A stretch of DNA of 64,000 bases from Armatimonadota bacterium (GTDB lineage Bacteria > Armatimonadota > HRBIN16), in the NCBI GenBank assembly GCA_942492855.1, contig OW818647.1, positions 1,142,264 through 1,206,263 of the forward strand, in the 5' to 3' direction. Each line of letters starts with the position of its first letter. Position 1 is the first letter of the stretch. Shown here piece after piece: positions 7,357 through 13,317 of this stretch. Below the pieces are notes generated by a model. That model was not told where the DNA came from and made no database searches. It was given only the letters and a program-made list of their open reading frames with translations. The translations under genes were made by a program, and so were the position numbers.

Positions 7357-8394
7357 CTAGCCCATCGCCTGGCGGGCGAGTTTGAGGGCTGAGGCGAATA
7401 TCGAGGCGGTGGCGTCTGGCGATGTGGTGTATCCCTGCCCGCCGGTTCCTTGCCGCATGACGGCGATCTCCACGTCGCCCTCTTTCTTCAGCTCCACAAG
7501 CACATCACCGAAGCGCGGGATTTTGGCCTCTTTTTGGGTGTTCTTATCCTTGAGGCTTGTCAGTAGTCCGGCGAAGAGCCCTGAATCGGCCTTAGTCAAC
7601 AGCGGGCGGATGCGATTCACCAACCCAAATGAGGGCTTCGCGATGAGCACACAGTAGGTGTACGGGTATTTGGTGCTCTGCACCGTGTTCATGGTGGTTT
7701 GAACCTGGATGCCGTAGAAGTCCTCGGGTGCTGCCGTCAACTTCACCATCATCTTCACATCCACCGGCACGGAGCCGTTGGCGGTCTGCGCAACCTGGAT
7801 GCTGGGCTGGAAGGTGACATCCTTGATATCAGCCATCATGTCATATAGCGGCATGAGCTGGTTGATTTTCGTGCGCATCTCCACCGGCTCCCAGCTTTTC
7901 ACCACACCACTGATCCAGAGCGGCAGCAGCAGAGTCACCGCATCCATCACGAACAGAGTGCTCAGTGAGCCGCCCGCCATGATGGGCACCATCGGCGAGG
8001 GGTTGAAGTTATCTGAGCCCGAATTCATGAGGTTCGCGGCTGCGAACGCCAGCAGTATGATGATGCCGATGAACATCAAACAACCACCCGCTGAGCTCAG
8101 CGAAAACATACCCGCCGCTTTCTTCACATCGGTGCTTTCGCGCAGCATGGCAAGAAGTCCGTTGAACTCGTTGATGGTCACACTTTTCCATTCGCGGTCA
8201 CGGGTGAACTTGGGCACGTTGGAGCGGCCCTTTAGCATGCCCAGCAGTGCGGCGGCCAGCACCCCCACCCAGCCGATAATCGGCGCGATTGTGAACTGGA
8301 CGATGATGCCCACCACTGCGCATATCACCATCAATGCATATCGTGTCTGGATGGGCATCGAGTTGGCAATGACGAATTCAGGCGATTTGTTCAT
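7357..8394 (-). CDS. Polytopic membrane protein (about 5 N-terminal TM helices plus a soluble C-terminal domain). Function unknown. It is the last gene of the (ACHS)n/rSAM locus.
   Basis: The 345-aa ORF has hydrophobic segments. It lies immediately downstream of the IS-truncated rSAM gene on the same strand. Confidence 0.55.
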   Translation of the reverse strand: MNKSPEFVIANSMPIQTRYALMVICAVVGIIVQFTIAPIIGWVGVLAAALLGMLKGRSNVPKFTRDREWKSVTINEFNGLLAMLRESTDVKKAAGMFSLSSAGGCLMFIGIIILLAFAAANLMNSGSDNFNPSPMVPIMAGGSLSTLFVMDAVTLLLPLWISGVVKSWEPVEMRTKINQLMPLYDMMADIKDVTFQPSIQVAQTANGSVPVDVKMMVKLTAAPEDFYGIQVQTTMNTVQSTKYPYTYCVLIAKPSFGLVNRIRPLLTKADSGLFAGLLTSLKDKNTQKEAKIPRFGDVLVELKKEGDVEIAVMRQGTGGQGYTTSPDATASIFASALKLARQAMG

Positions 8395-8572
8395 GCTTTT
8401 CCCCCCGTTTTTGAAGGCTGGTCAGCTCCTGGTAACCCATCGCCTGCCAGTAGATCGGGCAGGCACCTGTGCAGATATCAAACTGTGCACAGGCTTTACA
8501 GATTTTGTGTGCATAGCGTTTGTCACGCCAATAGCGTGCCTGAACTTTGGCTATTTCATCGCATACAGCCAC
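8378..8572 (-). pseudogene. 3' remnant of the IS-disrupted radical SAM gene. It encodes the SPASM C-terminal motif C-x2-C-x5-C-x3-C (CKACAQFDICTGAC). The first 11 codons are read out of the IS end.
   Basis: The 64-aa ORF contains ARYWRDKRYAHKICKACAQFDICTGACP. The ARYWRD stretch is identical to the last residues (RARYWRD*) of the rSAM ORF 10430..11722. Confidence 0.7.
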
Positions 8573-11626: not shown

Positions 11627-13317
11627 CAGTGCGCGCCTCCGCTGACGCACGCGCTGTGACATGCCGAGTGGCACGCGCTGTGACAGGCACTGTGGCACGC
11701 GGAGTGGCAGGCACTGTGGCAAGCGTCATGACACGCGGTATGCACGTAGCACGCAGAGTGGCAGGCCTGCGAGCTCATAAAGGAGCTGAAGTCCTGGCTC
11801 TCGATCAGTTCATCGCCCTTGATGCCTTGCGCGATTTCATCCGGGCGGGAATCTACATACCGGTTGGTGGTGTGATAATGGGTGGTGCCATACCAGTAGT
11901 GCGCATAATACCGCGGATACCGGCGTTCATGCATCATGAAGCCCTCATCGCGTTGCTCTGGGGCCTCCTCCATTTTCTTGTATTGCTCGGCGATGACCTG
12001 CCGGTACCACTCCTTAGTCGCCTCCAGGTCGCAGTCCCACGCTTTGCGCTGGATTTGGTCCACCATATCCTGGAACATCGCCTCAAAATCGGCCGCCAAT
12101 AACGAGCCATCTCCACGGATGCGGCTGAGAAGCATCTCCTCATACCGGTTATCCGCTGACTGGTCAAGCGGGTAGAGCCGCTCCAGCTTGATAGGCTGCA
12201 CCTGCAGCACTTTCACCAACGCCACCGACTCCATGCGGGAGATCATCGCACCGAGAATGCGCGGCAGGGGCACCTCCAGCAGCATGGCCGCTTCGATCAT
12301 ATCCAGCTCAGCGATTTTGCCAGGGATGCGGTAGCTGGAGACCTCGATTTTCGGAGGAACCCACTCGCCGCGCTCCCAATCCACCTCACTCAGCTCACTT
12401 AACGCCGCCGTGGTGGACTTCATTTTGCGGCTGAGCAGCAGCAGCGAGACCACCACCACCCCAATCAGCAGGCCCCCTCCCAGCATCATGCGTCCCATGT
12501 TCTGCTGTACTCGTGGAATGTCGGGGAAACCCAGCTCATTCGCTACTCCGCCGTTTCCTGAGCCTGTTTGACCAACCAGCGGCTGATCGGACTGGGTTGC
12601 ACTAGAGGTCTGTTTCAACGTAAACAGGCTGGCGTTGATGTAGGTGGAGAGGCGCATGTGATATTGCGGCGGGGGGTTGTTTTTGTGGAAGCGCACCGTC
12701 AGCCAGTTCTTACCGTTGGCCGGTTGACCGTAATAGCTGATGAGATACTCCGAGTTGACATACTTCTCTGTGCGAAACCCAAGCTTCGTCAGCAGTTCTT
12801 GAGATACCGTCTTGCTGGCGGTGCTGATCGGATAGTGCAGATAAACCGTCATATGCTCAGCGGCTTCATCGAACTGGCACGGTGACCAGTTGAAATACAC
12901 CAGTTTCCCAAACTCGCTTTGGGTATACCCCATGTACCCGGCGGACACAAAGTCGGTGGCATAAGGGATGATGTAAGTGACCTCGCCGGAGCTCACAGAG
13001 GCCCCCTTGGCCAGCACCACGTCGAACTTGTTGCCCATATCCGTGATGGAGAGCCCGTATTTCCTGCCTGAGGAGTCGATCGCAGCCGCCTTGCCGTAGT
13101 CGAAGCGCGGGGCGGCGCTGCCAAAGCCCTCCAGGTAGAATCCGTGCAGCTCTCCGCTTAGAACCTTGTAACGAACTTTGTACACCACAATCGCCCGGCC
13201 GTCCTTTGTGGGCGAAACATCCACCTCAACCCACTTCAACACAGCCTCGGTGGCCATCGCACAGGTGGCCAGGATGCACAGACCGATGGCGATCAGCAGC
13301 TTACAGACATTTCTCAC
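11626..13317 (-). CDS. Secreted/membrane-anchored protein (signal peptide, beta-rich N-terminal domain, central TM helix, possibly DUF2207-like). The C-terminus is a Cys/His-rich tandem tetrapeptide repeat: ...[46 protein letters not shown].
   Basis: 563-aa ORF. The signal peptide is [22 protein letters not shown], the TM segment is [20 protein letters not shown], and the C-terminal (ACHS)n tail is as shown. Its stop overlaps the rSAM start codon. Confidence 0.65.
   Translation of the reverse strand: [563 protein letters not shown]
11632..11727 (-). repeat. Imperfect 12-nt tandem repeat (about 8 copies) that encodes the (Ala-Cys-His-Ser)n tail
   Basis: The plus strand reads GAGTGGCACGCG CTGTGACAGGCA CTGTGGCACGCG GAGTGGCAGGCA CTGTGGCAAGCG.... 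The copies differ mainly at synonymous positions (TGC/TGT, AGC/TCT/TCC/TCG, GCG/GCA/GCC). Confidence 0.8.

Follow-up and report, generated by a model that had tools for sequence, protein, structure and literature searches.

The closest described relatives of the system considered here are maturases that join a RiPP recognition element (RRE; RiPP, a peptide made on the ribosome and modified after translation), a radical S-adenosylmethionine (rSAM) core and a SPASM domain. The sactisynthases SkfB and CteB, the Lys-Trp cross-linking cyclase SuiB and PqqE each have a PqqD-like domain at the N-terminus, a CX3CX2C motif in the rSAM core and a SPASM domain with two sets of cysteines, and a Cys-rich substrate is encoded directly upstream. 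PapB and QhpD are thioether-forming maturases of the same type. TvgB and TigE (PDB 8VPO), which have the same architecture, act repeatedly on a TVGG or TIGSVS motif in free substrates of ~60 residues without Cys, forming C-C bonds on Val or Ile to give poly-cyclopropylglycine (PMC10878394). In the HXS (His-Xaa-Ser) system, a short tandem repeat is matured within a full-size envelope protein: HxsA carries a Cys-free repeat of period 3, is processed by the two rSAM enzymes HxsB and HxsC together with HxsD, and acts as the effector after cleavage and export to the periplasm (PMC13128918). Period-4 Cys repeats occur as predicted rSAM/SPASM targets in the CXXX-repeat (TIGR04117) and ACGX-repeat (TIGR04340) systems, whose targets are small peptides without a C-H dipeptide or a DUF2207-like carrier. 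Here we describe a cassette of three co-directional genes at positions 7357-13317, on the minus strand, of a 64-kb stretch of Armatimonadota DNA (contig OW818647.1 of assembly GCA_942492855.1; hereafter, the window). Gene 1 encodes a membrane protein that ends in an Ala-Cys-His-x array, gene 2 an RRE-rSAM-SPASM enzyme and gene 3 a second membrane protein. A first-pass annotation had proposed this locus as a RiPP-like module of no named class, and its sequence-level claims on the three genes were all borne out. We propose, with a probability of about 0.55 and on the basis of sequence, that the operon matures a membrane protein, in which the rSAM enzyme would modify the tethered tail of gene 1 post-translationally.

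Several features set the cassette apart from these systems. Compared to SkfB, CteB, SuiB and PqqE, a 563-aa (amino acid) membrane protein provides the candidate substrate as its C-terminal tail, which is invariant across phyla, and neither a protease nor an exporter accompanies it. Compared to TvgB and TigE, the repeat is A-C-H-x and sits on a membrane protein. Compared to HXS, the repeat has a period of 4 and includes Cys, a single rSAM enzyme is present, only three genes are conserved, and the tail is predicted to stay in the cytoplasm. The kind of system, an RRE-rSAM-SPASM enzyme with a repeat-bearing target, is known; the cassette departs from it in its candidate membrane-protein target, its invariant tail of fixed length and its new gene 3 partner. 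The elements on which the argument is built are the following.

11626..13317, minus strand: gene 1, 563 aa, the putative substrate, a DUF2207-like bitopic membrane protein whose C-terminus is a Cys/His repeat tail
11629..11766, minus strand: Cys/His tail of gene 1 (residues 518-563), the proposed modification site, ending in (ACHS)6 ACVSGGAH
10430..11626, minus strand: gene 2, 5' fragment (residues 1-398), with the RRE-like domain, the radical SAM core and the first half of the SPASM domain
11303..11626, minus strand: PqqD-like RRE domain of the rSAM enzyme (residues 1-108), matched by profiles at the family level
11234..11257, minus strand: CX3CX2C radical SAM cluster motif, CNLSCRFC (C124, C128, C131), invariant in 39 orthologs
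8378..8521, minus strand: gene 2, 3' fragment, with the end of the SPASM domain, CX2CX5CX3C (C406, C409, C415, C419), and the C-terminus
7357..8394, minus strand: gene 3, 345 aa, four transmembrane (TM) helices and a C-terminal cytoplasmic alpha/beta domain (residues ~171-344)

The tail of gene 1 contains 10 Cys and 10 His, and the period-4 Cys/His repeat reported for its C-terminus can be read directly in the 563-aa open reading frame (ORF). At the DNA level the repeat is degenerate, with a period of 12 and 64% matches, and its serines are encoded by both the TCN and the AGY codon families. This implies selection on the protein rather than recent slippage. For comparison across genomes, one genome per species was scanned; 480 stretches with a relative of the rSAM enzyme were obtained, and the best 80 (47-93% identity) were examined. 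In 82 loci located via the rSAM gene, homologs of gene 1 and gene 3 were found in six-frame ORFs. No gene 1 ortholog whose end lies on the contig lacks the tail, which is better conserved than any other part of the protein, with columns at least 90% identical across phyla against 20-60% for the remainder of gene 1. An identical 35-aa end, CHDACHS(ACHS)5ACVSGGAH, is common to 31 loci, in which the third codon positions of this segment are only 44% identical; identity of the peptide while synonymous sites are close to saturation points to strong purifying selection. Exactly seven uninterrupted xCHx units occur in 69 of 80 loci, and 10 Cys in 58 of 80. The commonest unit is ACHS (433 occurrences), followed by ACHD (77), ACHG (37) and VCHD (15). 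Directly before the tail lies a conserved [YF]xxFxxS segment, and a second pre-array variant, CY[ED]GPF[LV]QN[VM]CHD..., is found in Omnitrophota, Elusimicrobia and others. From 1.8 billion cluster representatives, a full HMMER search recovered 647 relatives, whose arrays are in some cases shorter or longer, as in P0137; P0250 carries a long CHxA/CDSSC version.

The array also affects how the family is represented in databases. Several contigs end inside gene 1 homologs, and in some called proteins the tail is read in the wrong frame (LPQRLPLGLPQCLPLR...); loci L083 and L084 and the proteins P0157 and P0246 are cases of such trouble. Word-indexed protein searches for gene 1, with the single sequence and with a 39-member alignment, retrieved only the same 7 relatives, although at least 80 genomes encode it. 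The repeat thus breaks assemblies and confuses gene callers, and the family is under-represented in protein databases as a result. Viral contigs scanned with the gene 1 alignment contained no true homolog, and the three matches returned were false; on the IMG/VR contigs L087-L089, phage PVTQ tandem-repeat genes read out of frame mimic ACHS-like strings.

The second line of evidence comes from the arrangement of the three genes. The loci come from about 20 phyla, nearly all of them as metagenome-assembled genomes (MAGs): Armatimonadota, Abditibacteriota, Planctomycetota, Lentisphaerae/Victivallis, Kiritimatiellae, Verrucomicrobia, Acidobacteriota, Sumerlaeota, Spirochaetes, Omnitrophota, Elusimicrobia, Firestonebacteria, Fischerbacteria, WOR-3, Nitrospinota, Hydrogenedentes, Auribacterota, Stahlbacteria, Riflebacteria and others. 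In 80 of 82 loci the rSAM gene has a gene 1 homolog upstream on its own strand, usually closely spaced (about 1.1 kb away in L077), and the contigs of the two loci without gene 1 start inside the rSAM gene. The neighbours of the rSAM orthologs are gene 1 homologs, not sulfatases or other unrelated substrates. Similarly, a gene 3 homolog lies downstream of the rSAM gene on the same strand in 79 of 82 loci, again mostly at close range; in two of the three loci that lack it the contig extends well past the rSAM gene, and the gene may be absent, divergent or missed. The median gap is -1 nucleotide (nt) between gene 1 and the rSAM gene, with the TGATG type of overlap in 28 of 79 loci, and -4 nt between the rSAM gene and gene 3. 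In the window, the junction GCGCACTGATGGAG places the TGA stop of gene 1 (11628-11626) over the ATG of gene 2 (11626-11624), and the TGATG overlap claimed earlier is thus read directly in the sequence. All-against-all clustering of the ORFs in the loci disclosed no other conserved gene, including no sulfatase, protease, transporter, or tetrapyrrole or metal gene, which indicates that the cassette is self-contained.

Complete relatives of gene 1 without a tail were also found. No rSAM gene follows P0272 or the fusion protein P0241 described below, and this correlation is counted in favour of tail modification. P0275 and P0223 were considered as further tail-less relatives and set aside, since the genes are cut by contig ends and give no information on tail loss. 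Near the distant gene 1 relative P0223 there is an orthologous RRE-rSAM gene in a divergent arrangement. In locus L084, an RRE-rSAM gene (1-902, minus strand; 46% identical) diverges from a gene 1 relative (1784-3595, plus strand), with two small genes between them; the canonical gene order is therefore not universal.

The enzyme itself was assigned by profile searches. Gene 2 matches the radical SAM model PF04055 with 108.4 bits (E 5.6e-31; cut-off 29.5) and the SPASM model PF13186 with 26.4 bits (E 8.3e-6; cut-off 21.5), which places it in both families and agrees with the CxxxCxxC core and SPASM clusters described by the first-pass annotation. In the enzyme as reconstructed without the insertion described below, the SPASM motifs are C354-X9-G-X4-C369 and C406-X2-C409-X5-C415-X3-C419, and eight Cys of the SPASM region (C337, C351, C354, C369, C406, C409, C415 and C419) are invariant in 39 orthologs. 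The N-terminal domain, which has the pattern RERDSLLILLPNQAYKLNxTG in the 39 orthologs, is matched by Pfam PqqD in 20 of 27 members of the enzyme family (best E 2.8e-5), and the best match of its profile in the PDB is the RRE of the lasso-peptide protein TfuB1 (6jx3_B; E 0.047), with PqqD itself (3g2b) at E 0.87. The proposed RRE thus stands at the level of the family. By sequence profile, the solved structures nearest to the whole enzyme are those of SkfB, PqqE, TigE (8VPO), SuiB, anSME and CteB; the match to TigE spans residues 46-420 and includes part of the RRE, and that to the anSME structure is distant (E 4e-16) and covers the core only. Four further Cys, C81, C90, C135 and C137 (~11384-11386, 11357-11359, 11222-11224 and 11216-11218), show conservation of at least 90% among the 39 close orthologs, the first two in the linker between RRE and core and the others immediately following CX3CX2C. 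An additional site for a metal or cluster might be formed by these residues, which the more distant ortholog in L084 lacks.

No curated family accounts for the enzyme or its partners. None of the NCBIfam rSAM models reached its cut-off on the enzyme, and the best 25 matches were all below. The highest scores of the catalytic domain were obtained with tetrapyrrole-type models, namely AhbD (166.6 bits against a cut-off of 500), NirJ2 (134.6/500) and NirJ (110.4/515), with AhbC also among them; the peptide-maturase models StsB (104.8/625) and SkfB (77.8/300) and the models of other repeat systems, TIGR04340 (88.7/400) and HxsC4 (98/500), were similarly far from their thresholds. We take TIGR04115 and TIGR04116 to be the paired maturase and accessory models of the CXXX-repeat system and TIGR04341 to be the ACGX partner. 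TIGR04115 was not among the 25 best rSAM matches, and no match to TIGR04341 appeared in the profile scan; the repeat here is ACH[SDGN], not ACGX. The CXXX-repeat target model TIGR04117 weakly matches the tail in 14 of 39 family members (best E 4.5e-5), and the tail in the window scores 13 bits against a cut-off of 50 (E 0.083). Membership of the SCIFF, HXS, ACGX and CXXX systems was rejected on these scores, all far below the cut-offs. Assignment to the families of tetrapyrrole-modifying enzymes (AhbD, AhbC or NirJ) was not supported either, as the scores lie below the equivalog cut-offs and no haem-pathway genes are neighbours, and an identity as anSME was rejected, since no sulfatase occurs in the 82 loci, the tail has no CxPxR motif and an RRE-like domain is present. 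The view that the repeat belongs neither to HXS nor to anSME nor to SCIFF, and that the module falls in no named class, is thereby upheld by model scores, repeat period and neighbours alike. NCBIfam 20.0, the local Pfam and PADLOC hold no curated model that names gene 1, gene 3 or the rSAM subfamily, and relatives carry only the database names "hypothetical protein" or "radical SAM protein". No description of the system or of the motif was found in the literature searched. A newer Pfam accession, PF27846, is precomputed on the homologs P0001 and P0002.

The topology of gene 1 bears directly on whether the tail and the enzyme could meet. An AlphaFold2 model of the protein (mean predicted local distance difference test score, pLDDT, 67) and its hydropathy profile agree on the signal peptide, beta-rich domain and TM helix that had been noticed in the sequence.

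13249..13317, minus strand: signal peptide or N-terminal hydrophobic helix of gene 1 (residues 1-23, ...CAMA/TEA; hydropathy segment 4-22, AlphaFold2 helix 2-21)
12634..13248, minus strand: extracytoplasmic beta-sandwich of gene 1 (residues 24-228; pLDDT 80-90)
12433..12489, minus strand: single TM helix of gene 1 (residues 277-295; hydropathy score 2.59; AlphaFold2 helix 277-309)
11878..12315, minus strand: cytoplasmic winged-helix/helical domain of gene 1 (residues 335-480; pLDDT 70-85)

Since the protein has a signal peptide and a single TM helix, with Lys and Arg on the C-terminal side of the helix, its tail should lie in the cytoplasm according to the model; rSAM enzymes act in the cytoplasm, and the predicted location is thus in line with modification by gene 2. 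Foldseek searches relate the beta-sandwich to ribophorin I/Ost1 and to the M1-aminopeptidase N-domain, with E values of about 1e-7 to 1e-8. The conservation profile gives the winged-helix/helical domain one motif conserved in the family; WVPPKIxVxxFRxxGKIAxLxxxEA (residues ~319-343) begins in the juxtamembrane linker, where model confidence is low, and reaches only into the first residues of that domain. Outside the tail, the ~510 residues of gene 1 are also conserved across phyla and have motifs of their own. A profile search of gene 1 against PDB sequences gave no match. A relation to DUF2207 is indicated only through homologs: the N-domain of PF09972 matches 17 of 39 gene 1 orthologs (best E 6.7e-9), and the protein of the window has no match at E <= 0.1; TIGR04222 likewise gives weak matches in 5 of 39 family members and none in the window protein. 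DUF2207/TIGR04222 proteins share with gene 1 a signal peptide, a beta-sandwich, a TM helix, a cytoplasmic domain and a low-complexity C-terminus, whereas the Cys/His tail and the linkage to an rSAM gene are specific to the gene 1 subfamily.

Gene 3 was examined with an AlphaFold2 model built on an alignment of looked-up homologs (mean pLDDT 82). The model contains four TM helices, which bears out the earlier description as a polytopic membrane protein, together with an amphipathic helix and a C-terminal alpha/beta domain. It had been suggested that gene 3 acts as an exporter or immunity protein; no transporter or peptidase similarity was found for it, and the cytoplasmic domain is instead possibly chaperone-like. 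In fact, the profile search of gene 3 against PDB sequences gave no match, Foldseek with the model gave no significant match, and Pfam and NCBIfam scans of family members gave scattered one-off matches only. The C-terminal domain was compared with class I chaperones of type III secretion and with YbjN, to which its identity is only 6-15%; unlike these proteins, it is fused to a four-TM anchor and has no secretion system genes nearby. In P0241 (622 aa; L086, 4491-6359), a beta-sandwich and TM helix like those of gene 1 are fused to a membrane protein that resembles gene 3 (hhalign probability 98.4%). It has no Cys/His tail and no adjacent rSAM gene, and it lies beside genes for rubrerythrin, desulfoferrodoxin and OsmC. 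The fusion hints that the membrane proteins of gene 1 and gene 3 work together.

Based on these results, a mechanism may be suggested. Gene 2 is translationally coupled to gene 1, and the RRE-like domain of the enzyme may dock on the conserved [YF]xxFxxS segment before the tail and then proceed along the repeats. The likeliest chemistry would be a thioether, of the sactionine or ranthionine type, from each Cys sulfur to a neighbouring residue; by analogy with Cys-directed SPASM enzymes, such cross-linking of the tail is probable. The product would be a rigid, His-displaying rod that probably binds metal and is still attached to the membrane protein, and gene 3, as a putative membrane-anchored helper, would probably sit with gene 1 in the membrane and hold the unfolded tail. 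The gene architecture, the co-occurrence, the coupling, the domain identities and the extreme purifying selection on the tail are directly established. That the tail is the substrate of the rSAM enzyme is what we infer from the strict three-gene co-occurrence, the tight coupling, the conservation of the tail, the RRE and SPASM features and the predicted topology. Precedents are counted in its favour as well: TigE and TvgB act iteratively on short tandem repeats (PMC10878394), and HxsA shows rSAM action on a repeat motif in a full-size protein (PMC13128918).

A number of observations count against this proposal. The tail has a pLDDT of about 30 and hence no confident model. The N-domain encoded by gene 2 in the window itself is below the PqqD threshold, and the matches of its family are weak, so that the RRE claim does not stand on the sequence of the window alone. 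On the catalytic domain, tetrapyrrole rSAM models outscore the peptide-maturase models (about 105 bits). The chemistry is drawn purely from analogy. A near-invariant substrate is atypical of RiPP cores and would suit an unmodified metal or cofactor motif. Finally, the association of tail loss with the absence of an rSAM gene comes from two short contigs.

The main rival reading follows from some of these points. The tail may be an unmodified metal or cofactor element, either Fe-S, Zn, Cu or Ni sites arranged in a chain or a CX3CH-type array for tetrapyrrole attachment, in which case the rSAM enzyme would make or attach the ligand, e.g., a modified tetrapyrrole, and the PqqD-like domain would only dock the enzyme on gene 1. 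What keeps this idea alive is the AhbD/NirJ-like character of the best NCBIfam matches (AhbD, NirJ2, AhbC and NirJ) and the C-H dipeptide: every Cys has a His directly after it, which recalls the CH of haem c motifs, and CHSACH can be read as CX3CH. The invariant length and sequence of the tail also suit a binding scaffold better than a typical RiPP core. However, the tetrapyrrole models remain far below their cut-offs (166 vs 500 bits), the enzyme family has an RRE, which to our knowledge AhbD/NirJ-type enzymes lack, and no tetrapyrrole or metal-handling gene is conserved nearby. In addition, the predicted location of the tail is the cytoplasm, whereas the attachment of haem c is known only from outside the membrane. 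We regard this explanation as unlikely, if not negligible. A bolder combination, which we consider very doubtful, is that the (A-C-H-x)7 array is the scaffold of a protein-tethered redox or metal device built by the rSAM enzyme on the cytoplasmic face of the membrane. Such a device could be a cross-linked Cys/His ladder that holds a linear chain of metal centres, or it could carry covalent tetrapyrroles, each CH providing a haem-c-like attachment and an axial ligand; the latter could be installed in the cytoplasm by the AhbD-like rSAM enzyme and not by the usual extracytoplasmic cytochrome c maturation systems. If true, this would be a new kind of cofactor with its maturation pathway, common to many uncultured phyla.

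Two other readings concern what the modified tail is for. Release of the tail as a modified peptide, through an internal start (FMSS..., 50 aa) or through proteolysis, with gene 3 as exporter or immunity protein, would be in keeping with the resemblance of an RRE-rSAM-SPASM enzyme and a Cys-rich C-terminus to sactipeptide and ranthipeptide clusters, and with the weak similarity of the tail to the TIGR04117 target model. The Met that had been put forward as the start of a free 50-aa precursor is not conserved, though, orthologs having FIHS, FVTS or FRSS; neither protease nor transporter genes are conserved within the cassette or around it, gene 3 resembles neither a transporter nor a peptidase, and the ~510 residues before the tail are conserved as well. 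A short released leader-core precursor was accordingly rejected as the substrate, the candidate being part of a 563-aa protein. RiPP cores are hypervariable, whereas this one is invariant and of fixed length; the near-invariance of the tail points to maturation of a protein and not to the secreted, diffusible RiPP product considered earlier, and release is most improbable. An envelope-associated anti-phage or stress-defence module like HXS, with the rSAM-matured repeat protein as effector, is a proposal on biological role that does not conflict with the maturation mechanism suggested above. It has a precedent in HXS, where an rSAM-matured short-repeat protein is an anti-phage effector (PMC13128918), and it fits the differing flanking genes between genomes, the AlbA_2/Schlafen-like ATPase gene that adjoins the cassette in the closest relative, and the disruption of the cassette by an insertion sequence (IS) in this strain, which shows that it is dispensable. 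Nevertheless, PADLOC gives nothing for gene 1 and gene 3, and for the rSAM core only a generic similarity to viperin; the tail does not diversify but is ultra-conserved from phylum to phylum, the identity of the enzyme roughly tracks taxonomy (Armatimonadota first, followed by Abditibacteriota and then other phyla), the tail is on the cytoplasmic side whereas HxsA is periplasmic, and the viral contigs scanned hold no true homolog. A role in defence therefore seems distinctly improbable to us.

Modification of the tethered tail thus remains the preferred reading. If the rSAM enzyme does modify it, the tail would represent a new substrate class, a full-length membrane protein with a fixed-length Cys/His array kept essentially unchanged over about 20 mostly uncultured phyla. 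The tail is conserved more strongly than the enzyme, which suggests a cofactor-like or structural role rather than that of an antibiotic. Tail modification would also extend the idea derived from HXS that rSAM "RiPP" machinery matures functional proteins, and it would give a first functional handle on this DUF2207 branch and on the gene 3 family, neither of which has an assigned function.

In the window itself, the cassette is interrupted within gene 2 by an insertion sequence.

8540..10432, minus strand: IS701-family insertion sequence, 1893 bp, inside the rSAM gene
10433..10450, no strand assigned: target-site duplication, copy 1, GCACGCTATTGGCGTGAC on the minus strand
8522..8539, no strand assigned: target-site duplication, copy 2, direct repeat of copy 1

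The 5' fragment of gene 2 is ended by a stop codon from the IS end. The 3' fragment lies in a 64-aa remnant ORF (8378..8572), which, as claimed, retains the last SPASM motif, CX2CX5CX3C (CKACAQFDICTGAC), and matches the SPASM model TIGR04085; the gene 3 ORF starts within it and overlaps the end of the rSAM gene by 17 nt. The transposase is split in two overlapping ORFs (9203-10009 and 8551-9234), which could reflect a frameshift or a programmed one, and a 63-aa ORF (10006-10197) overlaps its start. NF049999 matches both transposase fragments with 130.9 and 62.8 bits, against a cut-off of 170 meant for the intact protein, and Pfam DDE_5 gives 63.9 bits (cut-off 27). The element is present as a single copy in the window and is bounded by a terminal inverted repeat. 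The 18-bp direct repeat that flanks it is unusually long and is present once in the intact ortholog. The DDE transposase, the inverted repeats, the target duplication and a precise excision that restores the host gene place the element in the IS701 family. When the element and one repeat copy are excised, the junction aligns with the intact ortholog over 170 nt with 95.3% identity and 0 gaps, and the reconstructed rSAM enzyme has 445 residues, 96% identical to P0008, an Armatimonadota MAG protein. The uninterrupted locus does exist in this relative, where the three genes encode 563, 445 and 345 aa; downstream of it, as in the window, lie an M24 peptidase and an amidohydrolase. Gene 1 and gene 3 are still intact in the window (86% and 89% identical to the closest relative), and the insertion is probably recent. 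As the element takes C406-C419 off the enzyme and splits gene 3 from the upstream genes, the cassette is presumably non-functional here, judging from the sequence.

Some further observations concern the surroundings. No Rfam matches were found in the window. Between 6900 and 7200, the window contains a cluster of GC-rich palindromic repeats similar to repetitive extragenic palindromic elements (units, e.g., GTAGGGGCCACCCTTGTGGTGGCCC, in both orientations). The cluster sits where the closest relative (L001, 10431-11804) has the 457-aa AlbA_2/Schlafen-like ATPase gene, which is absent in the window. On the other side of the cassette, between gene 1 and the gyrA region, about 5.4 kb (13410-18829) have a lower GC content (0.44-0.49 vs about 0.57 elsewhere); the corresponding distance is only about 0.5 kb in the relatives L001 and L003, and the segment is probably an inserted island. 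A second low-GC stretch, with values of 0.43-0.45, lies at 52001-58000.

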